A DNA stretch of 32,000 nucleotides. It comes from Okeania sp. Lineage in GTDB: Bacteria > Cyanobacteriota > Cyanobacteriia > Cyanobacteriales > Microcoleaceae. Of this stretch, positions 1 through 24,247 are shown one piece after another; within the stretch, counting starts at the first letter, position 1, and every line of letters begins with the position of its first letter. A program made the position numbers and the translations under genes. The notes beneath the pieces are model-generated. The model searched no databases. It saw nothing but the letters and a program-made list of their open reading frames with translations, and was not told the DNA's origin. The DNA lies in contig NZ_JAYKGW010000157.1 of assembly GCF_035285525.1 (NCBI RefSeq), positions 1 through 32,000 of the forward strand, read 5' to 3'.

Positions 1-1548
1 GCAGTAACAATAACTCGTAGCAACGGTAGTGATGGAGCAGTCAGCGTTACACTCACCCCCAGCAATGGTACAGCAACAGCACCTGAAGATTATGATCATA
101 CTTCTATAGTGGTTAACTTTGCAGATGAGGAAACAGAAAAAAACGTGAATATTCCCATCGTCGATGATAGTGAAACAGAGGGAAATGAAACTATTAATTT
201 AGCTTTATCAAACCCCACAGGAGGAGCCACTATTGGTACTCAAGATACAGCAGTCTTAACAATTGTAGATAATGAAGTAATACTTGGTACCGAAGCAGGA
301 GAAATTTTAACAGGAGACGAACAGGATAACTATATTAATGGTTTTGGTGGCGATGATACTCTCAATGGTTCTGGGGGAGATGATAATTTATTTGGGGGTT
401 CTGGCAACAATATCTATGATGGCGATGATGGTAATGATACAGTCAGTTATGCCAACAACCAAACCAGTGGAGTTATTGCTAACCTCGAAACTGGCAATGT
501 CTCTCGTAAGTTTGAAACTTGGTCTGAAGATTTTAAAATTCTGCCTCTAGGTGACTCCAACACCAGTGGATACAGTAAATCTAGTCCCGGTGGGTATCGC
601 ATCAACCTATGGAGGTCTTTAGATGGTGCTGGGTACAATTTAGATTTTGTTGGTACAGCCTACAATGGTCCTTCTGATATTGATAGAGATCATGAAGGTC
701 GCGGTGCTTTCACTATTAATCACCTTATAGATAACACTGTCACTCAATTTCAAGGTTACAATACACCATCAGTAGCAACATACACAACTATTGAAGATAC
801 CTTGGGCACTTATGACCCAGATATGGTGTTATTAATGGCAGGTACTAATGACATTAGGGAAGGTGATGATGTAGATACGGCGATCGCTGATTTAGAGGAA
901 CTTGTGGATAGGATTGTTATTGCTGCACCTGATACCCATGTATTGGTTGGCTCTATTCTGCCAAATACTGCAAATGCTACTCGTGAGGCTAAAACTATTG
1001 AGTTTAGTAGCCGTGTTGAAAGCGAAATTGTCCAACCCCAAGTAAATGCTGGTAACTATGTCAGTTTTGTAGATATCTTTAATGCTCCACTCATTCCCAG
1101 TGACTTTACCTCTGATGGTACCCACCTGACATCTGGTGGTTATGATAAGTTAGCAGAGGTTTGGGAAGATGCTATCATTAATACGGTTGTTGCCGAAGAC
1201 ACTCTAATAGATGTAGAAAACTTAATTGGTTCTGATGGTAATGACGAACTCACAGGGAACAATGTTGCCAATGAACTTACTGGTGGCGCTGGAAATGACA
1301 CCATTACTGGTGGCGGTGGAGATGATTTATTTATCTACAGTGAAGGAGATGGAACTGACCTGATTACAGACTTTGAACTTAGTAACGATTTATTTGGACT
1401 ATCTGGTGGTTTAACTTTCAGTAAATTAACAATTGAAGATGCAGGGGCAAACACTGAAGTTAAAGTTACCCTCACTGACGAAGTTTTAGCTGTACTTCCA
1501 GGAGTGGTCGCAAATGATATTACCTCTGCTCATTTCATAACTGTCTAA
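1..1548 (+). CDS. Secreted multidomain protein, 5'-partial: Calx-beta domain, RTX (hemolysin-type Ca-binding) repeats, SGNH/GDSL hydrolase domain, second RTX block
   Basis: Frame 1 is open from base 1 (AVTITRSNGSDGAVSVTLTPSNGTATAPEDYD...), so the gene starts upstream of the window. Calx-beta signature: NFADEETEKNVNIPIVDDSETEGNETINLALSNPTGGATIG. GGxGxD nonapeptides: GGDDTLNGSGGDDNLFGGSGNNIYDGDDGND and GGAGNDTITGGGGDDLFIY. SGNH block I is ILPLGDSNTSGY, with GTND mid-block and DGTHLT as the final D-x-x-H block. Confidence 0.85.
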   Translation, partial: AVTITRSNGSDGAVSVTLTPSNGTATAPEDYDHTSIVVNFADEETEKNVNIPIVDDSETEGNETINLALSNPTGGATIGTQDTAVLTIVDNEVILGTEAGEILTGDEQDNYINGFGGDDTLNGSGGDDNLFGGSGNNIYDGDDGNDTVSYANNQTSGVIANLETGNVSRKFETWSEDFKILPLGDSNTSGYSKSSPGGYRINLWRSLDGAGYNLDFVGTAYNGPSDIDRDHEGRGAFTINHLIDNTVTQFQGYNTPSVATYTTIEDTLGTYDPDMVLLMAGTNDIREGDDVDTAIADLEELVDRIVIAAPDTHVLVGSILPNTANATREAKTIEFSSRVESEIVQPQVNAGNYVSFVDIFNAPLIPSDFTSDGTHLTSGGYDKLAEVWEDAIINTVVAEDTLIDVENLIGSDGNDELTGNNVANELTGGAGNDTITGGGGDDLFIYSEGDGTDLITDFELSNDLFGLSGGLTFSKLTIEDAGANTEVKVTLTDEVLAVLPGVVANDITSAHFITV

Positions 1549-2688: not shown

Positions 2689-3390
2689 TTAGTCCGATTT
2701 CATTCGTTGAGAAATAACCTTTGCAGGCACTCCCACTGCAATAGAATAAGGGGGAATATCCTTAGTTACCACTGCCCCTGCTCCTATCACGCTACCTTTA
2801 CCTATTCTGACACCATCAACTACTCTAACTCCACTACCCAGCCAACAGTCATCTTCAATCACAATACCTTGATAAGAACGGCCTTGTTCCTTAATCTTGC
2901 GATTTGGGTCTGAATATATATGATTATTTGCATATATTCCTGTGTGAGAAGCAATTAGACAATCATTACCTATCACAATATTACGTCCAGAAAGACAAGT
3001 GTAAGGACCTATATTGGTGCGATCGCCTATAACTATTAAACCCTCATCATGGACTCTAATATCTACTCCTCGTTCTAATCTACTTTTATTACCTATTTTA
3101 ATCCAGCTATTTAAACCATCTGCAGCTATATTAGCCCCAGAGCGAATATAAACCCCACTGCCTATTTCTATCCAATAGGTACGGTTAAATTCCACATTGT
3201 GTTGAATTTGAATATTACTTCCCCAGTTAGCAAAAATTAGACTATACATAGAGCTTCGTAATTTCATTCCCAATGATAAGGGTATGCCACCGATTGTAGC
3301 TAAAACTACACGATATAGATTAGTTAGTTTAGCCTGAGAGTCTTTCTTGACAAACTCATCAAATTTGTATTGATCTTGAGTAATAGTCAT
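2689..3390 (-). CDS. Left-handed beta-helix (hexapeptide-repeat) O-acetyltransferase, WbbJ/WcaF-like, possibly HpsU-like
   Basis: 233 aa. Hexapeptide repeats throughout: IGNDCLIASHTGIYANNH, GIVIEDDCWLGSGVRVVDGVRIGKGSVIGAGAVVTKDIPPYSIAVGVPAKVI. Hydrophobic N-terminal segment. Lies in a glycosyltransferase neighbourhood. Confidence 0.85.
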   Translation of the reverse strand: MTITQDQYKFDEFVKKDSQAKLTNLYRVVLATIGGIPLSLGMKLRSSMYSLIFANWGSNIQIQHNVEFNRTYWIEIGSGVYIRSGANIAADGLNSWIKIGNKSRLERGVDIRVHDEGLIVIGDRTNIGPYTCLSGRNIVIGNDCLIASHTGIYANNHIYSDPNRKIKEQGRSYQGIVIEDDCWLGSGVRVVDGVRIGKGSVIGAGAVVTKDIPPYSIAVGVPAKVISQRMKSD

Positions 3391-3485: not shown

Positions 3486-4082
3486 CTATGTATATGTCTT
3501 ATATATAGCAATCCTAAATTCATCAATTATAAACACTGTCAGATTTTCAGCTTGTATTTCCGGTTCCCATCTGGCTAATAATTCCTCTATATCTTTTCTC
3601 TTATTCGAGGGATGGAGAGGTATCCTTGCCATCCCTCGACCAGTTCTTTGAGCTTTCACTAATTCATCATTTTTAGGGGGATTATTGTTCTGAGTTTTTT
3701 TCCAACTTATTCCTGCTTCTTTAAGTAAATTATAATAACTTTGAGCCGACTCAAAAACTACATCATATTCATTCTGTAAATAGTTTTGTAAATCTGATAA
3801 TTTCAAATAATATTTTGCCCTTAACCACTCAATTGTTTCCTGTTTTTCTTGCGCATTTAAGAAACCTTTTCTGTCTTGATACTCAAGTCTTAAACTTTCT
3901 ACACCATGAAATAGTGCTTGGTGTTTCCATTGACTAATAAAACTATAAGAAACATTTAATAATTCTTTGATTTCATGGTAGGATTTTCCTAACAAAATCA
4001 TTTTTACTGCCAAGGCTCTTTTAACTTCTTTAGACTCTCTTGTTTGATTGATAAAATCATCTAATTCATCTATAATATTCAT
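3486..4082 (-). pseudogene. IS630-family transposase remnant: N-terminal HTH/winged-helix part only, DDE domain mostly missing
   Basis: Typical IS630 N-terminus (KRALAVKMILLGKSYHEIKELLNVSYSFISQWK ... GISWKKTQ). The ORF stops just after FIIDEF, the position of the first catalytic D. Only about 95 bp remain before the next gene. A 10-bp perfect hairpin (3606-3615 / 3629-3638) sits inside the ORF. Confidence 0.7.
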
Positions 4083-4139
4083 TTTTAGTCTTTTTCCTGG
4101 ATATGTTATTCTTAACTATTTATACAGATATCATTAATC

Positions 4140-4242
4140 AGGACTAAAGCCATATGAACCCAGAAACCCGGTACGAGCGTACACATCTATTACTCAAAAC
4201 AAGGATTTATCCTAGAAACCGGGTTCCTCCCGTGTAAGTCCT
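4140..4242. mobile_element. MITE family A, full-length copy
   Basis: AGGACTAAAGCCATATGAACCCAGAAACCCGGTACGAGCG...CTAGAAACCGGGTTCCTCCCGTGTAAGTCCT. Lies between the IS630 remnant and the PP-loop gene. Confidence 0.8.
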
Positions 4243-4383
4243 AATTAATATCTAAGAAACCAGTGACGATCCGAATTGTACACAAAGCACTCTGTGAAAA
4301 TGGTACAAAGGATGGATGATTTAATAACCTTTGTGTAATTAATTTTGTATTTGAGTTTTTTCTCAGCATAAGTATCGTTATCG

Positions 4384-5607
4384 TTAAGGTTTCCAAATAC
4401 TTGCCTTTTGTTTTTGCTTCTTTAATCCTGGTAATAGATTATAAATTGTATTTTTGATAGGATACCAAAATAGTTTTAATCTTGCTTCCAGACGGTTGCG
4501 CCATAAACAAAACTTCAAAGCATTTACCCAAGAAGCAGAAATGCCTGCCTTTTCTGCTTCTTGAAGTATTGATCTAAATTCATTAGCCTGTGTTTGATCG
4601 AGATTTCTTAAACTTGATATATGAGCATCACTAACATCTTGCTCAAAACTTTCTGGTAGTGGAACTCCTACAACTCGCAAGTTTAAAATTGTGCGAACAC
4701 ACTTTTCGCAACGTCCACAGTTCAAACGATCAAAATTCTTTTGATTTTGAGGACCATACCAACATACCCGTAGTCTAGATAAAGCTTCAGGCCACTCAGA
4801 CAACATGGCCATTTTCTGAGTACGTGTAAAATCTGCACTATCGTGAATAATCTCAAAAGCATCACTGGAAACTAAAGGATCTGTTAATGGATTTGTTCCC
4901 CAAGGTATTACCAGTGATTGGTAAGGTTCTGTACTAGAAATTAATCCGGCTCTATATGTTCCCTGAAATAACATTAAACAGGAACCAGTCATACCAGCAA
5001 AAGCATCTTGTCCTAAACTTAAAGCCTTGAAATTTGTCGCCATCGTTATTAATTCTACCCCCAGACTCTCAAGAATTGCTTCTGAGTTTTGATAAGCGCG
5101 TTCAAATACTTCTTTTTGTTTCAGAGGAATATCAACACCATGAATCATCAATCCTGCTTTCAAATTTCGACTTAATCTACCACAGCGATTAGCAGCATGA
5201 CGAAAAGCAGTAAAACAAGCATCAACTCCACCGGAAAAAGCCATAATATCTCCAGCAGCATCATCTGCTCTTTGCTGTTCTATTTCTTTATCTGCAATGA
5301 CATCAATTTTTTTAAAGGATTTAGGTCGCCAGCAGGCCCATATTATTTGTAACTTTTCCAGGTTGCGTAATAAAGAAGGAGAAATTTCACCATGAACGTG
5401 CAAATCTGCTCCTCTTTTCATTCCCCAAAAAATGCTTCCTACAACCAGTGGATCCCAACTTTTAGTAATTTTAGAACTATGTTCTGCGGGTACACGATAC
5501 CATAAAGGAATTTTTGATTGTTTGGAGTCTTCTATAATAGCAGTTATAGTAACTGAACCATCTGCTTCGGTTTTTTCTTCTCTCCAGATATGAGCTAGAT
5601 TTTTCAT
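4384..5607 (-). CDS. PP-loop (adenine-nucleotide alpha-hydrolase superfamily) ATPase with a QueC-like C-terminal Cys motif and an unrecognised N-terminal domain
   Basis: 407 aa. PP-loop variant IMAFSGGVDACF (SGGxD-A instead of SGGxD-S/T). C-terminal NCGRCEKCVRT resembles the CGxCxxCxxR zinc motif of QueC-type enzymes. The first ~115 aa match nothing I recognise. Confidence 0.65.
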   Translation of the reverse strand: MKNLAHIWREEKTEADGSVTITAIIEDSKQSKIPLWYRVPAEHSSKITKSWDPLVVGSIFWGMKRGADLHVHGEISPSLLRNLEKLQIIWACWRPKSFKKIDVIADKEIEQQRADDAAGDIMAFSGGVDACFTAFRHAANRCGRLSRNLKAGLMIHGVDIPLKQKEVFERAYQNSEAILESLGVELITMATNFKALSLGQDAFAGMTGSCLMLFQGTYRAGLISSTEPYQSLVIPWGTNPLTDPLVSSDAFEIIHDSADFTRTQKMAMLSEWPEALSRLRVCWYGPQNQKNFDRLNCGRCEKCVRTILNLRVVGVPLPESFEQDVSDAHISSLRNLDQTQANEFRSILQEAEKAGISASWVNALKFCLWRNRLEARLKLFWYPIKNTIYNLLPGLKKQKQKASIWKP

Positions 5608-5716
5608 AAAAAAAAACTAAAATTATTTAGCACTAATTAGGAATAACAAGACTTACGCAGTACACCCATACAGAAGTTTTCGGAAATATTACCATCCGTA
5701 TTCAAGAAAAAAAATT

Positions 5717-6508
5717 TTAGTATAAACCAAAATCTTTTCTAATTGATAATGTTATCGGACGATAATTGAATAAGACTTTTTTGATTTTAGGCAATAACCC
5801 TTTAGGATTAATTAAATTTTCTTTTCTTAATACATTTTCATTATGGCAAACAATATAAACACTACCAGGAAAAGGCAAAGGTGATATTGGTGTCTCTCGA
5901 TTAGCCAACAACTCCACTGCTTTGCTATGAGGAATATAGTACCTATTGTAGTAATCCAAATTATTAGATTCTAGAGTCTCAGGTAATGGATATAAGTCAC
6001 GTCTCAAAATAATTGATGTTCCACACCAACGATCAAAATTTTGCCTTTTAATATAGAGATATTTACTACCTTCTTTATATAAATAGCCTTTGTTGACAAA
6101 CCAACCATTATTTTGAGGACTTTGTTCAACCAACTGTGCTAGATGTTTGCTAACACAATCATCTGCATCGACAACCATTATATGAGTAAAACTATAATTT
6201 TCTTGAGCATATTTTATCCCAGTTAGTACCTTCCTAACCTTATCTGTTCGCTTTCTTATCAGTAAATTTACTTGATCTTGACTAGAAACTTGGGGAAATT
6301 CTACTCTCACATAATCAACATAAGGATGTATATATTGATTATTGGGCAATTCGTGACACACTACTACTACCCTAAAAGAATTAGAACTTTGATTACAAAC
6401 AGACTTAATAGTTCTTTCAAAAAGTCTAGATACAGTTTCCCATGACTTAGAAGTCTGCTGGCTCTTCAAAGGTATGACAAATAAAAGCATTTTTAAACTA
6501 TTACCCAC
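5717..6508 (-). CDS. Probable GT-A fold glycosyltransferase (GT2-like)
   Basis: 263 aa. Begins with a Rossmann-like strand (LLFVIPLKS...). DxD-type motif MVVDADDCV. Operon-like position among sugar-modifying genes. The start could instead be the Met at 6490 (MLLFVIPL). Confidence 0.55.
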   Translation of the reverse strand: MGNSLKMLLFVIPLKSQQTSKSWETVSRLFERTIKSVCNQSSNSFRVVVVCHELPNNQYIHPYVDYVRVEFPQVSSQDQVNLLIRKRTDKVRKVLTGIKYAQENYSFTHIMVVDADDCVSKHLAQLVEQSPQNNGWFVNKGYLYKEGSKYLYIKRQNFDRWCGTSIILRRDLYPLPETLESNNLDYYNRYYIPHSKAVELLANRETPISPLPFPGSVYIVCHNENVLRKENLINPKGLLPKIKKVLFNYRPITLSIRKDFGLY

Positions 6509-6706: not shown

Positions 6707-8368
6707 TTACATTAAAGAAGCAACAGATGTTTGTAATAATGACTTACCATCAAAACGACGAGAAATTGGGGCATCCATTAACTGAAGAATAGTAGGTGGA
6801 AGGTCAATAACATTACCTTCGGGCAAAATTGAACCGGGAGTAATACCATTACCTTGCACCATAACAAACCCTCTGGAACGATGACTACCTGTACGCCTGT
6901 AGGGAACAGGCCCAATACGTCCATACTTAGGACTATCAATAACATCAGTAGGTTTATCATCCCATTCTATCACCAAATCAGCACCTGGTAGTTTGGGATC
7001 CCTTTGTTGAGGAGATTGGCGCGTCCGCATCACTTTCTTCACAACTGACAACCCATTCCTGGGATTCTTCAAAGCATATAATTCCTCAGTTAATTCTTCA
7101 CACAAAGCATCATACTCTATGACAGAAACTATTCCTTGAGGTTCCCTACCTTCCAAGTTAATCCGAATATAGCCTTCAGAAAAACTTGGTAAAGCAAACG
7201 CTTTCATTTTTGGCCAGAAAGGTTTGTACCAACTGACAGGCTCCCAATAAAATGGGTCTGACTCTTTTTGCAACTGTTGAGCAGAAGCTAAATCAGGATT
7301 TTGAGCCACACCAAAAAACTTATCTATATAATCATGGAACTTACTGGGTGTATACTCCCTTAATAAACCTCTAATTGGGTTAGGATCGTACTTGCGTTGC
7401 CAAATTTCCCCCGCCCAAGTTTTGCGTTTTGTTTTTAATACAGGTGATGGCACAGGACCTCCAACTTTTCCAGGAGCAATCATTGCTTTACCAGGAAAAT
7501 TAAAGCGATAAAGAAACTCACCCAAAAGGAACATACTGGAAACATCAGTAGTATTGTTATCACTACCATGAACAGAAAACACCATGAAATAAGCATTTTC
7601 TGGAGCTGCTGCTAAGATTTCACCCACTGCATGATCTGTCGCTTCAAAAACTTCCAAAAGTGGGTCTTGGTCAAACAAGTTCTTTGGTCTATACTGATAT
7701 AAAGGATGATCAGGTTGACTGAGGAACCAAAAATCATGACCGGCTGAATGTGGTTCGCCAAATACTGTTAAAAATAAATCCCACTTCTCCTGGTGCAACA
7801 AGTCACGACATATATCAATACGCTTAGAAATACCTGCTTTTAGTGCCTCTCGCAGACGAGTTAAATAAGCTCCATCCCACCAATCACCATGATCTTTATG
7901 CAATGCTGGATGTTTGCCGTAACGATGATTAATTTCTGGCAGTATATTTGCAGGTAGAGAATGACTAGGAGTACCAGGAGAATGCGCACCCCAAGCTAAT
8001 ACCTGAATACCATTAACTTCTGGGGAAAGAGTAGATTTAGGCAAATCGAATGCACATACTCGATAATCATCTCCCAAAGCATAGAATGGAGCATAATCTC
8101 CAAAATCATAAGCACCAACATTTTCAACTTTGTATGTTCCCTCGTGAAACTTAATACCGCCCCAATATCCAGTATTCTGAGGCCGTGTACCTGCTATGAA
8201 AGTAGTCCAGGGAGTTTCTGCTTTGTAGTGGTCTAGACCTGTTAAGCGACCGTAAGCTCCCTGTTTTCGGAGTTTACTTAAATTCTTCAGATACCCTTGA
8301 GACATCCAAGATTCTAATAACTCTGGGTCTGCTGCATCTAATCCAATAGCAATAACAGGATTTTTCAT
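6707..8368 (-). CDS. Alkaline-phosphatase superfamily protein (type I phosphodiesterase / nucleotide pyrophosphatase-like)
   Basis: 553 aa. N-terminal metal-site strand VIAIGLDAADPELL. Candidate Thr nucleophile region ETPWTTFIAGT. His-rich blocks EPHSAGHDFW, VFSVHGSDNN and RRTGSHRSRGFVMVQG are typical of this fold. Confidence 0.8.
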   Translation of the reverse strand: MKNPVIAIGLDAADPELLESWMSQGYLKNLSKLRKQGAYGRLTGLDHYKAETPWTTFIAGTRPQNTGYWGGIKFHEGTYKVENVGAYDFGDYAPFYALGDDYRVCAFDLPKSTLSPEVNGIQVLAWGAHSPGTPSHSLPANILPEINHRYGKHPALHKDHGDWWDGAYLTRLREALKAGISKRIDICRDLLHQEKWDLFLTVFGEPHSAGHDFWFLSQPDHPLYQYRPKNLFDQDPLLEVFEATDHAVGEILAAAPENAYFMVFSVHGSDNNTTDVSSMFLLGEFLYRFNFPGKAMIAPGKVGGPVPSPVLKTKRKTWAGEIWQRKYDPNPIRGLLREYTPSKFHDYIDKFFGVAQNPDLASAQQLQKESDPFYWEPVSWYKPFWPKMKAFALPSFSEGYIRINLEGREPQGIVSVIEYDALCEELTEELYALKNPRNGLSVVKKVMRTRQSPQQRDPKLPGADLVIEWDDKPTDVIDSPKYGRIGPVPYRRTGSHRSRGFVMVQGNGITPGSILPEGNVIDLPPTILQLMDAPISRRFDGKSLLQTSVASLM

Positions 8369-8491: not shown

Positions 8492-9451
8492 TTAGCTAGT
8501 TTTATTTACAGCAATACTCTTCATAAACTGTTTTTTAATCAACTCAAAAGGACTGAGCATACTACTCAAGAAAAATTCTAGTTCACAGGCCGCTACTAAA
8601 TCAGTTTGAAGATTCTGTCTGTATTTATAAATGTGTAAGATAGCTCGGCGTAGACTTCCCATAACTATCTTAGTCATTACAATTGGCTTTTGCCAACTTT
8701 TGATATTAATCAAACGTAGTTCACAAATACAAAGACCTACAGTTCTAGATAAAGAAAGTAGATAATCTCTTTCTAATCTCCAGCTTGGTATTTTATGATC
8801 TAGGTGCATATCTGGATTATACCAAATTTCCCAGCCTCCCCTGTGTAAGTGGAGAGATATTTCAAAATCATTTCCTCCTCTTGTCGTTCTAACTAGGCGC
8901 TGAGGAACATTTTCTAACCAAGCCTTTTTCCTAACAACTAATCCTGCTCCTGGAGGTAAACTTAAATTTTCTGGATTGTATAAATGAGCTTTTGAACCCC
9001 GCTCTTTAATTGCTAAAAATGATTTAATTCTCCCAAAATTTTCAGGAGGTTCTACTTCAAAATCACCATGAATTTGACCGCCATAAGCTCCTGCTTTAGG
9101 ATATTCTTGAGCAAATTTATATGCCATAGATACCCAGTCTGGGGCTGGAAAAACATCGTCATCTATGAAACCGATTAATTCTCCTTTTGCTGCTTCGATA
9201 GCCTTCTGTCTAGCAAAAGCTAATCCTTGTTCGGCTTCAAAACAATATCTTAAATTATAAGACTGCGACCAATTTTTTTGGTAATCTTGAACTACTTTTG
9301 CTGTATTATCTTTGCTGTTATTATCAACAACCAGAATTTCCCAATCAAAATGTTCAGTGTTAATTTGCTCTCGCAATTTATCCAGAACTTTTGGTAAACG
9401 TTTTTCCCCATTATAGGTAGGGATCGCTACCGTGAACTTTATCTGTTTCAT
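8492..9451 (-). CDS. hpsE: Family-2 glycosyltransferase, HpsE-like (hormogonium polysaccharide type)
   Basis: 319 aa. FTVAIPTYNGEKRLPKVLDKLREQI...ILVVDNNSKDNTAKVV, then FIDDDVFPAPDW (DxD). The N-terminal region is a close paralog of the first ~330 aa of the next gene. The symbol is a family-level assignment only. Confidence 0.8.
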   Translation of the reverse strand: MKQIKFTVAIPTYNGEKRLPKVLDKLREQINTEHFDWEILVVDNNSKDNTAKVVQDYQKNWSQSYNLRYCFEAEQGLAFARQKAIEAAKGELIGFIDDDVFPAPDWVSMAYKFAQEYPKAGAYGGQIHGDFEVEPPENFGRIKSFLAIKERGSKAHLYNPENLSLPPGAGLVVRKKAWLENVPQRLVRTTRGGNDFEISLHLHRGGWEIWYNPDMHLDHKIPSWRLERDYLLSLSRTVGLCICELRLINIKSWQKPIVMTKIVMGSLRRAILHIYKYRQNLQTDLVAACELEFFLSSMLSPFELIKKQFMKSIAVNKTS

Positions 9452-9503
9452 AGAGACTTTTAAAGTTATTGTCGATCATAACTTATGTTGTATTTAAGGT
9501 CGG

Positions 9504-9646
9504 TATAGCAATCAGGAATCAGATGTGAGATTTTAGTCGTAACTAGGTAGGATTCAGGAGTTAGAAATCAGGAGTCAGAATGTAAAAAGATTTTGATTGA
9601 TCTTGATCATTCTTAAATATCTCATCAATCATTCCTGATTGCTATA
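9504..9646. mobile_element. MITE family C (16-bp perfect TIR TATAGCAATCAGGAAT ... ATTCCTGATTGCTATA)
   Basis: Perfect 16-bp terminal inverted repeats read directly. 143 bp, located between the two GT2 genes. Confidence 0.7.
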
Positions 9647-9887
9647 GACGAAAAAAATTACAAGTACGTCCGAAACGACTGGAACTGACTACAAGGAAGC
9701 AATAGATAAGGGTTGCAACTACTTTAACATTTCGTTACTGAAAAATAAAAGTATAAAACCTCTCCTTTTAAGGCGCAACTGCTTTTGGGAACACAACCTT
9801 CCAGGTTGTTACAGCCTGGAAGGCTGTGTTACAAATGTACCTCACAATCTTTAGGCATTGCTGTAATCAGCAAGCTCTATTTTAATT

Positions 9888-11714
9888 TTAGGTAAATCTC
9901 AAAGGTTTAGGAGAATCTATAGCATAGCCTTGAGCATAATGCAATCCTTGGGTAATAATATTATCCATTATCTTGCTGTTTTCAACCGCTTCCGCAATCG
10001 TTTTAATACCTAATTTATCACCCAGACTATGGATTTTTTCTATGCTGATGAGATTTCTACTGTTGTTAATAACTCCTTGAATTAATTTGCTATCAATTTT
10101 CAGATAATCTATAGGTAGTTGTTTGATATGCTCAGACATGGAGCTAAGATAGCCATCATTATCTGAGGTAAGATGACCAGCATTATCTAAGGTAAACTGA
10201 CAACCAATTTCTTTCAGCATCTTCATCAGTTTTGCTACTTTTTCTTTATTATAAATAGCAATACTTTCACTGATTCCTAAACTAATTATTTCTGGTGAAA
10301 TTTCATGCTTATCAAACTGCTGACGCAAGAAATCTACGAATGTTTCATCATTGACACTAGCAGCACTAATGTTAATCTCATACAAACATCTATTGTCTTG
10401 AACTTTAGCCCCAGAAAGTTGACTCAACAACTTCCAAATTACCCATTTATCAATGATTCCCATAAAATTGTAACGTTCAGCAGTAGGTATAAACTTTCCA
10501 GGTAATATAATCTTCCCTTTTCTGTCTTCTATTCGCAGCAGAATTTCTAAATGTCTTCTGTTTAAATCTTGGTTGCTAATAGGAGATATGCTTTGACCAT
10601 AAAGACAAAAGTTTTGTTCTTTAAAAGAAAAGTTTTGTTCTCCACAACAACAGTTTTGTTCTTCAATAGCTGTAGCAATAATCTCTAACCAATTTTCACT
10701 GCCATCAAGTCGTCGGTAACTTCTGGCTTGAGCTTGAGACTCTTGTTGTTTAGCCCACAGGAAAAAAGGACTTTTGATTGTATTCCACAAAAATTCTGTT
10801 TGGCAAGCTGTCACAGTATCAGTTTTGATTAACTTACCTTTTTTCATCCTGTGAAGTACCAATTGTCGCCAATCATTAGCCATGTATGCTGGAAAAGCTA
10901 AAGGTTTTTGCCAACTTTTGAGAGTCATCATTCTCATACGATTTCGACTCAAACCTACACAACGAACTACCTTGAGTAAGTAATCTTTTTTCAGTCGCCA
11001 ATTAGGAATTTTATGATGAACCACCATTGCTGGGTTGTACCAAATTTCCCAACCTGCTTGCTGAATATGTCTTAAAGCTTCTAAATCTTCACTAGCTAAT
11101 CCAGCCTCTTTATCAGTATGATTCAAAAATAATGTCTTGGGAACTGCTTTTTCCCAGGCTTGTTTACGAACTACTACTCCAGCACCAGGGGGTAACATCT
11201 TATTTTTAGGCTTGTATAAACTTGGTTTATTACCTCGATTTATAATTCCTAAAAAACAAGCTATCTCTTTAAAGTTTTCTGGCAATTCTGATTCTGAATT
11301 TTGTTCAAAAAAGTATCCATGAATCTGACTGCCAAAAGCACCAACTTGAGGATGATTTTTCCCAAAACTATAAGCTTGGGATACCCATTCAGGAGCAGGT
11401 AAATTGTCATCATCTAGGAAACCAATAAATTCTCCTCTGGCTTTTTCCACTGCTCTTTCTCTAGCAAATGCCGCTCCTTGCTTTGCTGCAAAAGCATATC
11501 TTAATGGAATTAATTTAGGCCAGTCAGTCTTTTGATGATTTGCATAATCTCCTACTACTTCCGCAGTTTTATCCGTGCTGTTATTATCAACTACGATTAC
11601 TTCCCATGAGAAGTTCTCGGTATCTATTTGTGATTTTAATTTGTCTAATACATCTGGTAGACGAGCTTCCCCATTGTAGGTAGGGATAGCAACTGTGAAA
11701 TCAACCCTGTTCAT
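9888..11714 (-). CDS. Fusion protein: HpsE-like GT2 glycosyltransferase (N-terminal) plus EAL domain (C-terminal, apparently degenerate)
   Basis: 608 aa. N-terminus: FTVAIPTYNGEARLPDVLDKLKSQI...VIVVDNNSTDKTAEVV, FLDDDNLPAPEW. C-terminus carries EAL-domain blocks: LEILLR, PGKFIPTAERYNFMGIIDKWV, EINIS, LGISES, FTLDNAG, YLKIDSKLI, IAEAVEN, AQGYAI. Confidence 0.85.
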   Translation of the reverse strand: MNRVDFTVAIPTYNGEARLPDVLDKLKSQIDTENFSWEVIVVDNNSTDKTAEVVGDYANHQKTDWPKLIPLRYAFAAKQGAAFARERAVEKARGEFIGFLDDDNLPAPEWVSQAYSFGKNHPQVGAFGSQIHGYFFEQNSESELPENFKEIACFLGIINRGNKPSLYKPKNKMLPPGAGVVVRKQAWEKAVPKTLFLNHTDKEAGLASEDLEALRHIQQAGWEIWYNPAMVVHHKIPNWRLKKDYLLKVVRCVGLSRNRMRMMTLKSWQKPLAFPAYMANDWRQLVLHRMKKGKLIKTDTVTACQTEFLWNTIKSPFFLWAKQQESQAQARSYRRLDGSENWLEIIATAIEEQNCCCGEQNFSFKEQNFCLYGQSISPISNQDLNRRHLEILLRIEDRKGKIILPGKFIPTAERYNFMGIIDKWVIWKLLSQLSGAKVQDNRCLYEINISAASVNDETFVDFLRQQFDKHEISPEIISLGISESIAIYNKEKVAKLMKMLKEIGCQFTLDNAGHLTSDNDGYLSSMSEHIKQLPIDYLKIDSKLIQGVINNSRNLISIEKIHSLGDKLGIKTIAEAVENSKIMDNIITQGLHYAQGYAIDSPKPLRFT

Positions 11715-11893
11715 ATTGAACGCACCTCAACTAAAGTTTTTGCAATGTTTCTACATGGTGCTTTTGTTGCTTGATTTTCGCTGGCCTTGAAGGCGATCGC
11801 GAAATACAAACAATCAGGATACTCTACAGTCTGAGTTTAAGTGCTTAAGCAAAATTAGCAGATTCCAGGTACATTAAGTACAGATATTCAGAT

Positions 11894-11997
11894 AGGACTA
11901 AAGCCATGGACGCTACTGGTAGGGTGTGTTTTGCTACGCGACATGAAAAGCCTACTTCGTAATGCACCAATATATATAGAGCCTTTGCGTAAGTCCT
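11894..11997. mobile_element. MITE family A-related element (same ends, different core)
   Basis: AGGACTAAAGCCATGGACGC...GCCTTTGCGTAAGTCCT. Sits about 180 bp upstream of the GT2-EAL start codon. Confidence 0.65.
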
Positions 11998-12672
11998 GTC
12001 AGAATTAAATCTAGTGCGGGCATCTTGCCCGCGACGGGTAGATATTGCCTGTGACAGGCGCTCCTCACGCTTAGTGGAATCCGCTATAATTGTGCATTGA
12101 TTTCTCAATTGGTCAGACTTAGAGACGAAATTATATACAAATAATTTTGCACAACTACTTATCCTGTAAATTCACCAAGTAGTTTGAATATTCTCTCTTC
12201 GGTTAAGTAGAATTACTGATCGTTTAATTGAGATGCACCCGAGCTATTGGCGTTTATAGCAATTTTTTCAAAGATTCTGACTAACTCTATAACTCATCAA
12301 AAAAGACATAATACAGCAACTGAGGCTAAGTTCTAAACAGAGTTAATCAGGAGTAAACAGAAGAGAAAAAGTGAGTAATCTATAGATTATTCAATAATGT
12401 TCTAATTTTTTAGACCTGATTTACTATTAACTAATCCAAAACTTTAAGACTGTACTATATTTTTGTAAGATTTTTTATTAGTCGGATATGAAATCAATAT
12501 ACACCCTTTTATGAAGAATTGGTGAAAATTTCCCAGAGATTTATAAATTTTCAGTAAAAACACTTAAGATTAAAATTAACCAGCTCAAAGCCTTGACAAA
12601 CTAATTTTAAAGTGGTAAAAAATCAGCAAATTTAATCCTTTTATGATTATTCTCAAAATATGTTGGCCATTT

Positions 12673-12692
12673 CAGTTATCAGTTATCAGTTA
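12673..12692. repeat. STRR-like heptamer (CAGTTAT), about 3 units
   Basis: CAGTTATCAGTTATCAGTTA read directly. The same heptamer recurs at 12981-13006, 15144-15163 (reverse complement) and 22303-22320 (reverse complement). Confidence 0.9.
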
Positions 12693-12980
12693 GGGTTTGC
12701 TGATTAAATATAAAAGCTTTTACTGGTAAAGGTTTTAGCCTTTTTAAGTCTGGAAAAAGTTCAACTTTTTAAGGATGAGGAAATGATGTATACTAACGCT
12801 ATTTTTTATTTATTGATATCGTCACTCCTGTCTCCTGAATCTTGACTCCTGTCTCCTAGTCCTCACTTTTGCAAAGACACGGTTAGGGGTTATATAACCC
12901 ATATTCGGCAGTTCAAGTTGTAGTATTAAAATTATGCAACTTACAGCGCTTTTCTTTCCTGATAAACCACATCGTCATTT

Positions 12981-13006
12981 CAGTTATCAGTTATCAGTTA
13001 TCAGTA
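12981..13006. repeat. STRR-like heptamer (CAGTTAT), about 3.7 units
   Basis: CAGTTATCAGTTATCAGTTATCAGTA read directly. Confidence 0.9.
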
Positions 13007-13179
13007 GAGAGTGAACCTCCGACTAAACTTGGAGGCTGGAAATACTGAGTTAAAATTTTTTCATCCCCGAACCAGGGGAGGCTTTATACCTCTTTTTTTG
13101 GTCATAACCAAAACTCCAGGGGCGAATGGGATTCGCCTTCATTGTTGTATGCAATGTCCGTACATATAAAAATGTCAAT

Positions 13180-13275
13180 AGACATCTCCAAAAATAAAAA
13201 GTAAAATCAATTCTCCCATAGGAAATTATCAATTCTTATTCCCTGTTCCCTGCTCCGTCTTTCCTGGAGATGTCT
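13180..13275. mobile_element. MITE family B, second copy (inverted relative to 1695-1817)
   Basis: AGACATCTCCAAAAATAAAAAGTAAAATCAATTCT...CCCTGTTCCCTGCTCCGTCTTTCCTGGAGATGTCT. Confidence 0.7.
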
Positions 13276-13334
13276 AATTGTTATGATGTTTTATATAGGT
13301 TTTATGGCAGTGTCAAATATAGTTGAATAAAATT

Positions 13335-14519
13335 ATGCGAATCTTACAAATAATACCTTCTATTTCTCTAGTTTACGGCGGTCCTAGTCAAATGGTTTCA
13401 GGACTTTCTACCGCTCTTGCTGCCCAAAATATAGATGTTACTATTCTTACCACAGATTCTAATGGGGATATTGGTCAACCGCCTTTAGATGTTCCCCTAG
13501 ATAAACCTGTCACACAAAATGGTTATCAAATTCGTTATTTTCGTTGTTCTCCGTTTCGTCGTTATAAATTTTCTCTACAATTATTACAATGGTTAAATCA
13601 ACACGCTAATGAATTTGATTTAGCTCATATTCATGCTCTTTTTTCTCCAGTAACTACTATAGCTGCAACTGTTGCTAGAACTAATAATTTACCCTATATT
13701 TTAAGACCTTTAGGAACTTTAGATCCTGCTGATTTACGCAAGAAAAAACAACTGAAAAAAATTTATGTTTCTCTGTTAGAAAAGCGGAATATTGCTCATG
13801 CTGCTGCTTTGCATTTTACCAGTACCCAAGAGGCAAAAATTTCTGAAAGATTTGGTTTATCTACAAAAGATTTAGTAATTCCTTTAGGTGTTAATCCTCC
13901 CAAAAATATTCCAGAGGAAAGTTTAGTTAATTTTCTTCAATCTCAAGGTATAGAAACTAAATATCCGATAATTTTATTTATGTCTCGCATTGAACCAAAA
14001 AAAGGATTAGATTTATTATTACCTGCTTTAGAAAAGTTATTGACTGAAGGGATAAATTTTCAATTTATTTTAGCAGGTGCTAACCCTCAAGACCCTAATT
14101 ATGAGGAAAAAATTAGGTCAAAAATACAAAATTCACCTCTGGCTAAATTTACAAAAATAACAGGTTTTGTTACAGGAGAAATAAAAGCAAGTTTATTGCA
14201 AGTTTCTGACTTATTTGTATTGCCTTCTTATTATGAAAATTTTGGTATTGCCGTAGCAGAAGCAATGGTAGCAGGCACCCCAGTCCTTATTTCTGACCAA
14301 GTTCACATTTGTCAAGATGTCGCAAATGCAAAAGCAGGTTGGGTTGGTGCTTGTCAAATAGAAGATATGGTTACTTTAATTAAGTCAGCTTTGCAGGATG
14401 AAACCGAAAGAAAACAACGAGGTTTGAATGCTAAAAAATTAGCTGAAAATAGTTATAGTTGGCAGGCGATCGCTACACAAACTATTCAAGCTTATGAAAA
14501 AATTATTGCTGATAAATAG
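13335..14519 (+). CDS. GT-B fold family-4 glycosyltransferase (Glycos_transf_1 type)
   Basis: MRILQIIPSISLVYGGPSQ N-terminus. E-x7-E motif in PSYYENFGIAVAEAMVAGTPVLIS. The ORF track begins at TTG 13323; ATG 13335 is the more plausible start. Confidence 0.85.
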   Translation: MRILQIIPSISLVYGGPSQMVSGLSTALAAQNIDVTILTTDSNGDIGQPPLDVPLDKPVTQNGYQIRYFRCSPFRRYKFSLQLLQWLNQHANEFDLAHIHALFSPVTTIAATVARTNNLPYILRPLGTLDPADLRKKKQLKKIYVSLLEKRNIAHAAALHFTSTQEAKISERFGLSTKDLVIPLGVNPPKNIPEESLVNFLQSQGIETKYPIILFMSRIEPKKGLDLLLPALEKLLTEGINFQFILAGANPQDPNYEEKIRSKIQNSPLAKFTKITGFVTGEIKASLLQVSDLFVLPSYYENFGIAVAEAMVAGTPVLISDQVHICQDVANAKAGWVGACQIEDMVTLIKSALQDETERKQRGLNAKKLAENSYSWQAIATQTIQAYEKIIADK

Positions 14520-15469: not shown

Positions 15470-17950
15470 TTATCCATTATCAAAAGGCAATTTTGGTGGT
15501 GGTGGAGGAACTACCAAGCACTCAACAACTGCTTTATGACTTTCGCGGTCAGTTTGGACTTCTGCCGCGATCGCCTCAAACCTAATTTCCAAACAACCAT
15601 AAGCAATATCTAAGTCTGTAATTACTTCTACTTCTCCCATTCCATTTGGGATAAAATCAGTTAACCAGCGAGGTCCAGCTACTATTGCTTGAGCTTGGCG
15701 ATCATAAACCCATATTTTAACATAAATCCGAGGTAAACCTTCTGGTAATTTCACCCTTACTTTTACTGCTCGTCCGGCAACAATATCTTTGGCCATCAAT
15801 TCTAAATTAGGAACTGGCAATGGTTGTTCATCTGATAAAATATAAGGTTTTGTCGAAATAGACTCATCTTTTTGTTGAGAAAGATTATCTAAACCAAAGT
15901 CCCATTGGTTCTCTTGGCCTGGCCAGATTTCTTCTGGTTGTTCATCTTCGACCACAAATTCTTCTGCTTCCCAATTAATTTCATCATTATCCTCACTAGC
16001 AAATTCTTCATCATCAACCATTACACTAATAGAATCATTATCCTGTAATTCTTCTGTTTTATCTAATTCTGTATTACCCTTGTCCGTTTTCTCAGTTGGT
16101 TCCACAGAAGAAATCTTCATCCATTGCAATAACTCAGAATCGTTAATCAAGGAATTTAAACGAGAAAAGAATCTATCTTCCAAGTTCAAAGCTTTAAATT
16201 CGTGATTTATAGGAGTAAAGTTTGTGGGAAAGGGTACAAGATTTTGTTTAGTTTCAAGTGTTGCTTCTTTATTAAAAGTTTCTGACTTTGACTCTACTTC
16301 TGATTGTAAATTTGTCTCTTCTTCAGACGGTTCTGAATCTCTCCAAACATCATCCATTTCATCAGAATCTTTAGTATAATTTGACTTAGCCAAATCATTA
16401 ATTTTAGTTGGATTTTTCGCCCTATTACTATTATCCGGTAGTGAATTTCCAAATGTTGGTAATTTTAATATTTCAGAATTTGACTTACCTGTAATAGGTT
16501 TGTTTATTTGTGGTGGTAAAGGTTTTTCTCTATCTGTTTTCTGCTCTGGTTGAGTCTGATTAATTTTTTTGACTAAATCCTGAAAAGAATTATGTTTTTC
16601 TTCTGGCTTTCTTGCTATTAAATTTGTTTTCGGATCAACTATTTCCTGATATTCATCTTCCCAAAAATTATCATCAATTACAGCTAGTAAGTTTTCAACT
16701 GAAGCGGTAATTGTAAAAGATTGATTTGCTAAAACATTATTATTATTTTTGAGGATAATTTCTCCTAATATTAGACGAGTTTTCATATTTTCTGGCACAT
16801 TAATTATACAGGCAAAGAAAATAGGTAAAGCTTGCTCTGGTAAAATTTGTTCTACTTCTATTAAAATTTCTGAAGTTTGAGGATTACGCAAACAAATATT
16901 TAAGTTCCCATTGATTATGGGAGTATTATTCGTTGCAAGAGCATAATTTTTTTCTGTTAAATTATCCTGGGCAAGTAGATTGTTAAAGCCTTCATTAGAT
17001 TGAATATTCTCATCTTGATTATCAATAATTATTTGTCCAGATATAGTTAATGCTTCTCCTGGTTGAGCAATATAAGATAATCTATCTAAAATTAGTTCTA
17101 GAGATAAATTTAGAATAGAGTTAGCTTGAGTATTAGTATTTGTTTCTTGATTTTCTTCTACTTTTATATCTGGCTCTTTCTGCAGTTCCTCCAATATTGA
17201 TGAGCTATTGTTCAGGGTTTCAGTTAGTTCTCTTAGTTGACTCTCTATATTTTTAATTTCTTCGTTTTGATTTTGAATGTTTGGTGTTTGCTGTTTATAA
17301 CTATCTAGTAAATCAGTCAGATTTTCTATACTTTCTGATTCTTCTGATAATGCTTGTAATTTCTCTTGAATCTGACTGTCTAATAATTCTATTTCATCTG
17401 ATTTAATTGTCTCAAGTTTTGGCAACTCAGGATAGTTTTTTCCTATATTTTCTTCTTGATTAATTGTTACTTCATTTTGACCTGAAAAAAACGAAATATT
17501 TTCATTAGTTATCAAATTCTTTAGCTCAGGTTCAGTATCTTTTACTTTATATAATTCTTGACTTTGTGGTTCTAGTTGTTGTGAAAAATCTGAACTATCC
17601 CAGTCATTAGACAATACTTCTAGATAGACAATATGTTCTCTTGTTTCTATTGATGATGTGGTTGGTTTAGCTAAACAGCGAAACTCCCACTTACCTGGTT
17701 TGAGTCTGGTAAATGGAATAATAGATATGAGACCTTGAGAGCGAGTACGACTAGAACGTTTATGAACTCGCCTTATGGGAGGGATTTCTTCATTAGAATT
17801 ATGAATAATCTGAATTTGGACTTCTGTATTAGCTATATGAGTATTCGCAACTATCCGATAGCGACCCTCTAGAATTTCCACATCGGCTAATTCTAAGGGT
17901 AGCCAGGTTTGGTCTCCCTCTTTCTGTAGCAAAAATTCCCAGTCTGACAT
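15470..17950 (-). CDS. Large acidic low-complexity protein of unknown function; apparently ordered N- and C-terminal domains flank an E/N/Q/S-rich centre
   Basis: 826-aa uninterrupted ORF in AT-rich DNA. Ordered-looking N-terminus (MSDWEFLLQKEGDQTWLPLELADVEILEGRYRIVANTH...KPGKWEFRCL) and C-terminus (VKVRVKLPEGLPRIYVKIWVYDRQAQAIVAGPRWLTDFIPNGMGEVEV...). No motif recognised. Confidence 0.75.
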   Translation of the reverse strand: MSDWEFLLQKEGDQTWLPLELADVEILEGRYRIVANTHIANTEVQIQIIHNSNEEIPPIRRVHKRSSRTRSQGLISIIPFTRLKPGKWEFRCLAKPTTSSIETREHIVYLEVLSNDWDSSDFSQQLEPQSQELYKVKDTEPELKNLITNENISFFSGQNEVTINQEENIGKNYPELPKLETIKSDEIELLDSQIQEKLQALSEESESIENLTDLLDSYKQQTPNIQNQNEEIKNIESQLRELTETLNNSSSILEELQKEPDIKVEENQETNTNTQANSILNLSLELILDRLSYIAQPGEALTISGQIIIDNQDENIQSNEGFNNLLAQDNLTEKNYALATNNTPIINGNLNICLRNPQTSEILIEVEQILPEQALPIFFACIINVPENMKTRLILGEIILKNNNNVLANQSFTITASVENLLAVIDDNFWEDEYQEIVDPKTNLIARKPEEKHNSFQDLVKKINQTQPEQKTDREKPLPPQINKPITGKSNSEILKLPTFGNSLPDNSNRAKNPTKINDLAKSNYTKDSDEMDDVWRDSEPSEEETNLQSEVESKSETFNKEATLETKQNLVPFPTNFTPINHEFKALNLEDRFFSRLNSLINDSELLQWMKISSVEPTEKTDKGNTELDKTEELQDNDSISVMVDDEEFASEDNDEINWEAEEFVVEDEQPEEIWPGQENQWDFGLDNLSQQKDESISTKPYILSDEQPLPVPNLELMAKDIVAGRAVKVRVKLPEGLPRIYVKIWVYDRQAQAIVAGPRWLTDFIPNGMGEVEVITDLDIAYGCLEIRFEAIAAEVQTDRESHKAVVECLVVPPPPPKLPFDNG

Positions 17951-20851: not shown

Positions 20852-21307
20852 ATGCCACCAAAAGCTCGTTTGAAAAACTATCTGACTACAGAAGAATTGA
20901 AAATTCGCTATCGACAAGCTCCAGATACCATCGAATCCCGTCGATGGCATCTCCTGCTTTTAATTGCTCAACAATGGTCTATTAAAAAGGCAGCTCAAGT
21001 TATTGGGCTTAATTATGATTATGCCAAGGAAATTGTTGGACGTTATAACCGAGAAGGACCGGAGTCTGTGAAAAATCGTAGCAAGGATCGTCAACCACCT
21101 CCTGCTAAATCTTTATTGACTTTTGCTCAACAGCAGGAACTATTAATGGCTTTACAAGGGCCTGCTCCTGATGGTGGGACTTGGTCTGGTCCAAAAGTAG
21201 CTCGTTGGATAGCTGATAAAACTGGTCGGGATCATGTCTGGCCTCAACGAGGTTGGGATTATCTAAAAAGGTTGGGTATTGACTGGAAGAAAAAAGATCA
21301 CAAGTAA
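20852..21307 (+). pseudogene. Orphan IS630-family orfA-like HTH ORF with no DDE partner downstream
   Basis: 151 aa. HTH region SIKKAAQVIGLNYDYAKEIVGRYNREG and second winged-helix region WSGPKVARWIADKTGRDHVWPQRGWDYLKRLGIDWKKK. Ends next to an A6G run (21290-21296) like the IS630 frameshift site. Downstream DNA is non-coding repeats. Confidence 0.6.
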
Positions 21308-21905: not shown

Positions 21906-22486
21906 TGTATTTTTTTTAAAATATTTTGTAATTATTCAGTCGTCAACTATGAGTTATTAGCTTTATTAACTATGATTTAAATTCAAGATTAGCTTTTTTT
22001 TATTCAATTATCTACTTGAAAATATGTAAGGATTCATCCTTCAGCTATTAGCTATCAACTATTTGTAATTCACTCATTATTCCACTAGAGGAGCATTATC
22101 CATAAAGGAATATTCATGGTTATTTTGGTACAGTATTCCGTAGGAAATGAAATTGGTAATAAAACCTAACCTTAGTCATTACTTCCCACATTCAAAAGCT
22201 GATAGCTGAATGCTTATGAAAATATAGTAGAACACAAGAATGAATCGACCAAGAGAAAATTAACTTGAGTATTTCAAGCCTCTGGCTTAAGTAAGAGGTA
22301 ATGATAACTGATAACTGAAATGACAGATTATGGCTAAATGCTTAACATTAAATCAAATACTTTTCCGGAATCATAGTAAAAATATTGAGAAATTAGATGA
22401 AGGTTTTATTAACCATAATTATTCATGAATTATCAATTATTAATTTAGTAAAACCTGAAATAAAAATATCTCAATATTTAGTAGCT

Positions 22487-23182: not shown

Positions 23183-23185
23183 TAT

Positions 23186-24124: not shown

Positions 24125-24247
24125 ATAATTAATAATTACCTCTTCTTATTTAATAAGTAGAAACTTTTATGGCGCTATAGGCAACATAATTTCTGACTTT
24201 CCTCTAGAGATAAATTTAGTAAGCAGAAATTTTTATTATAAAAAAAT

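Follow-up and report, generated by a model that had tools for sequence, protein, structure and literature searches.

In the cyclic di-GMP (c-di-GMP) receptors LapD and FimX, the EAL fold serves sensing and not hydrolysis: metal-ligand residues have been replaced, and the surface of the switch loop and helix alpha-6 is available for ligand-coupled dimerization. Here we describe a protein that would resemble these receptors in both respects, encoded on the minus strand at positions 9888–11714 of a 32,000-nt stretch of Okeania sp. DNA (contig NZ_JAYKGW010000157.1, positions 1–32,000; hereafter the window), in which a family 2 glycosyltransferase (GT2) of the HpsE type is fused to a degenerate EAL domain. 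We find the fusion to be genuine, ancient and monophyletic, with conserved glycosyltransferase (GT) motifs and an intact EAL fold, and the two-metal catalytic residues are broken in every member of the family. We consider it fairly probable that the EAL domain, impaired in hydrolysis, serves as a c-di-GMP sensor for the Wzx/Wzy-pathway glycosyltransferase to which it is attached and which it would gate on binding c-di-GMP. The differences from LapD and FimX are nevertheless substantial. In those proteins the EAL domain sits beside a degenerate GGDEF domain and acts on a periplasmic protease trap or on the pilus machinery, whereas the fusion has no GGDEF domain and its EAL domain would act on the glycosyltransferase to which it is covalently joined. 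LapD and FimX share only about 20–23% sequence identity with the fusion EAL domain, which derives from an RbdA-like active subfamily, and in both receptors the EAL motif itself lacks its Glu (it reads KVL in LapD and AFL in X. citri FimX). The likeness to LapD and FimX proposed in the initial annotation was therefore overdrawn: the fusion family keeps E390 of that motif, together with N448 and D510, and its degeneracy is both milder and of another kind.

The closest relatives of the EAL domain (about 30–40% identity, with a common "IDRWV" block) are RbdA (PA0861) and the cyanobacterial PAS-GGDEF-EAL phosphodiesterases (PDEs), which differ in being fused to sensor and GGDEF domains and in keeping all catalytic residues and the DDFGxGMSSF motif. 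The transferase half resembles HpsE of Nostoc punctiforme, in that the N-terminal 320 residues of the fusion pass the HpsE model and its neighbors are hps genes; canonical HpsE differs in having a model of 307 positions without an EAL domain. The hps cluster is a Wzx/Wzy-type system that is essential for gliding motility, and genetic evidence for a role in polysaccharide secretion and motility comes from N. punctiforme hpsEFG only. Coupling of glycosyl transfer to a c-di-GMP receptor module, as proposed for the fusion, is also found in BcsA/XcsA (PilZ), Alg44, PelD, PgaCD and BgsA. These are processive membrane synthases, gated through a PilZ domain, an I-site, a composite PgaC-PgaD site or a BgsA-specific C-terminal domain, whereas the fusion has an EAL domain on a soluble, non-processive GT2 of a Wzx/Wzy-type pathway. 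To our knowledge, polysaccharide systems are otherwise gated by c-di-GMP at processive synthases, and the fusion would add a Wzx/Wzy-type pathway.

Within the searchable literature we found no bacterial paper on the combination of HpsE and EAL, and a GT-EAL fusion is not mentioned in the c-di-GMP and hormogonium polysaccharide (HPS) papers, the receptor and pilus reviews or the cyanobacterial domain census (key subscription hps papers and the RocR mutagenesis lay outside this search). The initial claim of novelty thus stands within that literature; the fusion proteins are already in databases, and it is the description of the GT2-EAL architecture that appears to be new. According to a 2023 review, downstream c-di-GMP targets in cyanobacteria are poorly investigated, the known receptors being the PilZ cellulose synthase XcsA and CdgR, and c-di-GMP control of motility is an outstanding question. 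The fusion family offers a concrete candidate effector, a receptor domain on an HPS-type transferase that heads a conserved four-gene cassette, and it may be the missing link between c-di-GMP and slime production. It overturns nothing, and gives a testable candidate for the little-known output side of c-di-GMP signaling in filamentous cyanobacteria; for the c-di-GMP field, a glycosyltransferase would be a new output on the short list of EAL-type receptors.

The fusion protein and its family

The gene is one uninterrupted open reading frame (ORF) with an ATG start, and its modules are arranged as follows.

9888..11714 (−): fusion gene, 608-aa HpsE-type GT2 plus degenerate EAL domain; ATG start, stop codon at 9888–9890
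10758..11705 (−): HpsE/GT2 module, aa 4–319, including long C-terminal helices (NF038302, PF00535/PF13641)
11406..11414 (−): DxD motif of the GT2 active site, D101-D102-D103, from conservation in 112 fusions
10626..10757 (−): helical linker from GT to EAL, aa 320–363 (AlphaFold2 helices 300–332 and 339–354)
9915..10625 (−): EAL domain, aa 364–600, catalytically degenerate (Pfam PF00563)

In the Pfam scan suggested at the outset, PF00535 (GT2) matched aa 7–132 with 84 bits, PF13641 and PF10111 also matched this part, and PF00563 (EAL) matched aa 364–600 with 134 bits against a cutoff of 31.3; Pfam gave only these GT2 and EAL models, and no PilZ domain was matched. The NCBIfam HpsE equivalog NF038302 covered aa 4–319 (model positions 1–307) with 448 bits (cutoff 300). 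An AlphaFold2 model built with 112 homologs placed both domains, and the one relative to the other, with confidence (mean predicted local distance difference test score, pLDDT, 92.1; predicted template modeling score, pTM, 0.90), residues 361–364 being the sole segment with pLDDT below 50. Compared by Foldseek with the solved EAL structures of RbdA, MucR, LapD and FimX, the EAL part gave target-normalized TM-scores of 0.87–0.91 (RbdA 0.87–0.88, FimX 0.90, LapD 0.91), and its closest solved relative is the active PDE RbdA/PA0861 (E about 1e-41). The intact frame, the family matches and the model bear out the initial annotation of a single 608-aa ORF that joins a complete GT2 to a complete EAL domain. 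The protein belongs to both the HpsE/GT2 and the EAL families and falls outside the active-PDE class.

The family has at least 112 full-length GT2+EAL members, and more than 100 such fusions were found at 42–76% identity, besides an Okeania sp. entry at NCBI (P0001) that is 100% identical and probably comes from the same assembly, so that it is no independent copy. Named sources are Okeania, Dapis, Laspinema, Phormidium, Phormidesmis, Leptothoe, "Cyanothece sp. SIO1E1" and cyanobacterial metagenome-assembled genomes (MAGs), which NCBI taxonomy places in Oscillatoriales and Nodosilineales, plus one Pseudanabaenales MAG; this range rests on source names in the protein database and on three loci. 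The earlier pointer to Nostocales was misplaced, as Okeania belongs to Oscillatoriales and none of the named sources of the family is from Nostocales. NCBI names the fusion proteins just "HpsE," which hides the EAL domain, and JGI names both domains. Mean pairwise identity across the family is 0.64 for the GT module, 0.38 for the EAL domain and 0.31 for the linker, the least conserved part. In the DxD motif, none of the 112 fusions departs from Asp at 102 or 103, and at least 90% have Asp at 101, which implies that the transferase itself would be functional.

A profile search of 1.84 billion representatives at 50% identity recovered about ten full-length fusion clusters, below which came HpsE-only proteins of about 320–340 aa and then PAS/GAF/CBS-GGDEF-EAL proteins; HpsE-only proteins were far more numerous than fusions in the top matches. 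From this result we take the fusions to be one compact family, a minority architecture among HpsE proteins with a single origin. A genome scan with a generic EAL pattern returned mostly Pseudomonas RbdA-like genes, the Pseudanabaenales MAG locus L029 being the only fusion among the matches listed.

Loss of catalytic residues in two clades

Residues of the window protein were assigned by alignment to RbdA/PA0861 and MucR and by family alignments, with RocR numbering mapped by spacing. The spacing fits RocR exactly for N233–E265 (32), E265–D295 (30), K316–E352 (36) and E352–Q372 (20); the sole exception is D295–K316, which spans 29 residues and not 21 because an in-frame tandem duplication of 24 nt has added eight. 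The sites concerned, with duplications as called by the program TRF, are these.

10533..10547 (−): EILLR, the EALxR motif (E390, R394), kept in 112/112 fusions
10275..10277 (−): codon of G480, which replaces a metal-coordinating Glu (RocR E265; alignments)
10182..10184 (−): codon of N511, which replaces the second Asp of DDFG (RocR D296; alignments)
9990..9992 (−): codon of E575 (RocR E352 equivalent), kept here and Lys in 69/112 family members (family alignment)
10141..10201 (−): 24-nt x2.3 in-frame tandem duplication, +8 aa in loop 6 (the switch loop) directly after D510-N511
10605..10666 (−): 21-nt x3 in-frame tandem duplication at the linker/EAL boundary (EEQNCCC/GEQNFSF/KEQNFCL)

Kept in the window protein are Q374 (QxI strand), E390 and R394 (EILLR), N448 (INIS), E483, D510, K539 (KID), E575 and E578 (AEAVEN) and Q595-G596 (QG). 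Two residues are changed: Gly480 stands at the position of RocR E265 (LGISES, the first Glu of ExxE), and Asn511 at that of RocR D296, the second Asp of DDFG. The alignments thus agree with every residue call of the initial annotation, on the kept EILLR, INIS, KID, AEAVEN and QG as well as on the two changes, and the metal-binding residues are not all conserved. The equivalent of RocR D318 is Asp. Loop 6 reads DNAGHLTSDNDGYLSSMSE with the 8-aa duplication, and not the conserved DFG(T/A)GYSS; the duplication encodes LDNAGHLTS / DNDGYLSS, which accounts for the "DNAG/DNDG" reported initially, and pLDDT falls to 80–83 there. Both in-frame duplications are absent from every other member of the 112-member family and are unique to the Okeania protein. 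Two such recent duplications in loops and linkers of the EAL half may reflect general short-tandem expansion in this genome, or relaxed constraint on loops.

Nine catalytic positions (RocR E175, N233, E265, E268, D295, D296, K316, E352 and Q372) were scored across the 112 full-length fusions, none of which has the full set. One deviation was counted in 15 members, two in 68 and three in 29, all confined to positions 480, 483, 511 and 575 (RocR E265, E268, D296 and E352). Q374, E390, R394, N448, K539, Q595 and G596 are present in 112/112, D510 in 110/112 and E578 in 106/112, the remaining six having Asp. Eight further representatives from the exhaustive profile search are non-canonical too. As a control, non-fused RbdA-like EAL domains keep every catalytic residue in 77/77 cases among the matches listed, and in the PAS-GGDEF-EAL proteins L003 (Nostoc) and L017 (Phormidesmis) the motifs EVLLR, FEVTET, DDFGxGMSSF, KID, AEFVEN and QG are intact. 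Loop 6 is degenerate in all fusions, as against DDFGxGMSSF in the canonical relatives. An EAL site is considered intact only if E175, N233, E265, E268, D295, K316 and E352 are all kept (PMC2952852); by this rule the site is not intact in the window protein, nor in any of the 112 family members.

The losses follow phylogeny. In distance trees (without support values; neighbor-joining for the EAL tree), the canonical EAL controls form one clade with no fusion within it, so that a single split parts controls from fusions, and on the EAL tree rooted by these controls the fusions fall into two clades. Clade A (38 fusions, including the window protein) never has Glu at position 480 (Gly, Ser, Cys or Ala instead) and never Asp at 511, and has mostly Glu at 575. 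Clade B (74 fusions) always has Glu at 480 and mostly Asp at 511, and carries Lys at 575 in nearly all members (AKG[VI]E). A tree of the GT part alone, with standalone HpsE as outgroup, again gives monophyletic fusions and clades A and B, and because the two trees give the same clades, GT and EAL appear to have evolved together ever since a single fusion. The most parsimonious ancestor of the fusions probably had Glu, Glu, Asp and Glu at 480, 483, 511 and 575, that is, an intact site. Since the sister clades carry different substitutions, catalysis was probably lost at least twice after the single fusion, by different routes and with the ligand pocket fixed. The proven receptor LapD has a KVL motif, in which a metal-ligand Glu has become Lys (PMC3032553), and the Glu-to-Lys change of clade B, at the E352 position, is a metal-ligand lesion of the same kind. 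Two clades with different inactivating substitutions amount to a natural experiment on the change from enzyme to sensor; if the losses are as reconstructed, the family is a clean example of an enzyme turning sensor twice.

Several proteins near the family differ in architecture. Other profile matches of about 600 aa were considered as independent GT-EAL fusions and rejected, being GGDEF-EAL or GT2-GT2 proteins instead. In the 635–673-aa class, P0129 and P0173 were confirmed to carry an HpsE-type GT2 and a second GT2 module in tandem, and P0015, P0038, P0040 and P0044 have an HpsE-type GT2 extended by non-EAL sequence; the tandem GT2-GT2 fusions are a Rosetta-stone hint that adjacent HpsE paralogs work as a physical pair. 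P0130 (339 aa, without an EAL domain) scores 530 bits against the family profile, almost at fusion level, and has a "LASEDLE" loop that is absent from the neighboring HpsE paralog of the window. It is likely a standalone ortholog of the GT module of the fusion, and lies outside the fusion clade in the GT tree.

A putative c-di-GMP sensor and its alternatives

In the reading that we favor, the protein would be a cytoplasmic, non-processive HpsE-type GT2 whose C-terminal EAL domain has turned from phosphodiesterase to sensor. The domain would still bind c-di-GMP without meaningful turnover; by analogy with LapD, binding would alter the switch-loop/helix alpha-6 surface and EAL dimerization, and the altered EAL state would in turn affect how active the attached transferase is or how it assembles. 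Synthesis of the polysaccharide specified by the cassette (the fusion, an HpsE paralog, a PF01663 enzyme and an acetyltransferase) would then come under direct post-translational control by c-di-GMP. Well-characterized c-di-GMP-gated polysaccharide synthases are activated by c-di-GMP, and on this analogy we lean slightly toward activation at high c-di-GMP; this is countered by the fact that HPS supports motility, while a diguanylate cyclase suppresses motility in filamentous Leptolyngbya. More tentatively, and short of calling it probable, we propose that two lineages independently made a pure c-di-GMP receptor after one fusion of an RbdA-type PDE with HpsE, one by removing M1/M2 ligands and the other by putting a Lys into the M2 site. 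Such a protein would be without precedent among EAL-type receptors in gating a non-processive glycosyltransferase of the Wzx/Wzy pathway directly, and would supply the missing post-translational link from c-di-GMP to gliding slime in filamentous cyanobacteria.

The initial proposal of a degenerate EAL receptor on an HpsE-type GT2 is carried by the contrast in the catalytic set between fusions and RbdA-like controls, by the invariant ligand residues and by inactivation in two clades. It is weakened at two recognition positions, and other observations also weigh against it. D296 and D318 are among the residues listed for c-di-GMP recognition (PMC2952852); Asp stands at the D318 position in only about 39 of 120 sequences, and the D296 equivalent varies in the family as well. 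In the dinucleotide-contact set Q161, R179, D296 and D318, it is thus the first two (Q374 and R394) that are present in 112/112, and the latter two that vary. Evolution has been much faster in the EAL domain than in the GT module (0.38 against 0.64 mean pairwise identity), and the 8-residue duplication in the switch loop of the window protein lies beside the binding site and could impair function. In P0128 the ligand-contact residues of the EAL region have gone as well (the Arg of EALxR, the Asn and QG), and because this lineage has fully decayed the EAL domain would be dispensable in some backgrounds. Three of the four M1 metal ligands (E390, N448 and D510) are retained in the family, and in 15 clade B members the sole departure from the canonical site is E352K, so that weak or conditional hydrolysis is possible.

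EAL proteins of the YdiV type, which are blind to the ligand, have lost c-di-GMP recognition residues. Here, too, the EAL domain could be a ligand-independent scaffold that dimerizes, or docks the transferase to Hps/Wzx-Wzy components, with no response to c-di-GMP, and the variable D296 and D318 positions, the fast evolution of the domain, its decay in P0128 and the EAL-less ortholog P0130 would all suit such a role; the GT2-GT2 tandem fusions found elsewhere suggest, in addition, that physical association of Hps transferases matters. We regard this as unlikely. Q374 and R394 serve only to hold the dinucleotide, not the fold, yet both are found in 112/112 at 38% EAL identity, and E390, N448, K539 and QG are invariant with them, so the residue loss typical of YdiV is not seen. 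A ligand pocket kept while only catalytic residues are lost is not what a scaffold would be expected to show.

It is distinctly unlikely that the domain is a weak, one-metal or partner-activated PDE, acting as a local sink for c-di-GMP, or as a "trigger enzyme", where the polysaccharide is assembled. Such a residual enzyme would explain the persistence of the M1 ligands and of the catalytic Lys (E390, N448 and K539 in 112/112, D510 in 110/112) and the 15 members changed at the E352 position alone, and it would accord with nearest relatives that are active-type RbdA-like enzymes and with a fusion ancestor that probably had an intact site. However, no member passes the seven-residue rule, the window protein lacks the E265 and D296 equivalents, and loop 6, which in RocR is reportedly needed for activity, is degenerate throughout the family and duplicated in the window protein. 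Losses that arose separately in two clades, through different substitutions, argue moreover that hydrolysis is not under selection.

Retuning of the pocket to some other ligand, for instance pGpG, a different cyclic dinucleotide or a nucleotide sugar, is very unlikely: the variable D296, D318 and E352 positions do line the phosphate/metal side, where the Lys of clade B would shift electrostatics, but the base-recognition residues (Q161 and R179 equivalents) and QG are unchanged, and the literature searched offered no precedent. An assembly or frameshift artefact, of which the initial annotation had warned, or a decaying pseudogene was rejected as refuted in practice, for although two recent in-frame tandem duplications lie inside the gene, IS630 fragments lie nearby and the 100% database match is probably the same assembly, the frame is intact, both domains are modeled with confidence by AlphaFold2, and the full-length orthologs of the fusion, of which there are more than 100 (112, down to 42% identity), have congruent GT and EAL phylogenies and keep their synteny in three orders.

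Genomic setting

The neighbors of the fusion gene are as follows.

8492..9451 (−): HpsE paralog, 319 aa, second gene of the cassette, downstream of the fusion (NF038302, 476 bits)
6707..8368 (−): 553-aa PF01663 (alkaline-phosphatase-superfamily) protein, third gene of the cassette (Pfam)
2689..3390 (−): hexapeptide-repeat acetyltransferase, fourth gene of the cassette
13323..14519 (+): HpsP, a family 4 glycosyltransferase (GT4), divergent from the fusion gene (NCBIfam NF038295, 698 bits, cutoff 550)

The fusion therefore lies among hps genes, next to an HpsE paralog and divergent from HpsP. The paralogy between the 319-aa gene and the fusion noted initially was confirmed, with 51% identity over 323 aa. 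On the minus strand of the window the order is fusion, HpsE paralog, PF01663 protein, two extra ORFs with an IS630 fragment, and acetyltransferase; the interruption at 3486–6508 holds a 263-aa ORF (sub-threshold GT2), a 407-aa ORF without a family match and the IS630 transposase fragment. The four-gene order is uninterrupted in Laspinema olomoucense (L081, clade A) and in the Pseudanabaenales MAG (L029, clade B), in both of which the acetyltransferase gene comes directly after the PF01663 gene. In two further clade B genomes (L082 and L083), the fusion gene opens a polysaccharide cluster that also encodes a GT4, an epimerase, an acetyltransferase, a Wzx-like flippase, a methyltransferase and a sulfotransferase. 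The PF01663 protein (type I phosphodiesterase/nucleotide pyrophosphatase) is strictly syntenic with the fusion in three orders and has no NCBIfam match; it could perhaps handle a phospho-substituent.

The spacer between the fusion gene and the HpsE paralog (9452–9887) is unusually long at 436 nt, against 27 nt in Laspinema L081, and that between the fusion gene and the divergent hpsP (11715–13322) is 1.6 kb. A search of 9400–13400 against Rfam for a c-di-GMP riboswitch or other RNA gave nothing credible, with one chance microRNA match (E 0.56). The SigJ "J-box" GGGAATACT had eight matches at up to one mismatch against 7.3 expected, which is the level of chance, and promoter and terminator scans of the spacer region examined gave no excess over shuffles.

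Elsewhere in the window, a second IS630 fragment lies at 20852–21307 (+), and an 826-aa ORF at 15470–17950 (−) has no Pfam or NCBIfam match. Without an obvious link to the fusion gene, a homolog of COP23 (circadian oscillating protein) is followed by two trypsin-like/HtrA-like proteases (22397–25774 and 26822–28303, both +), one of them fused to TPR repeats, with an MBOAT O-acyltransferase further on. At 109–1548 (+), a 479-aa protein carries RTX-type calcium-binding repeats and matches only the repeat regions of serralysin/hemolysin models.

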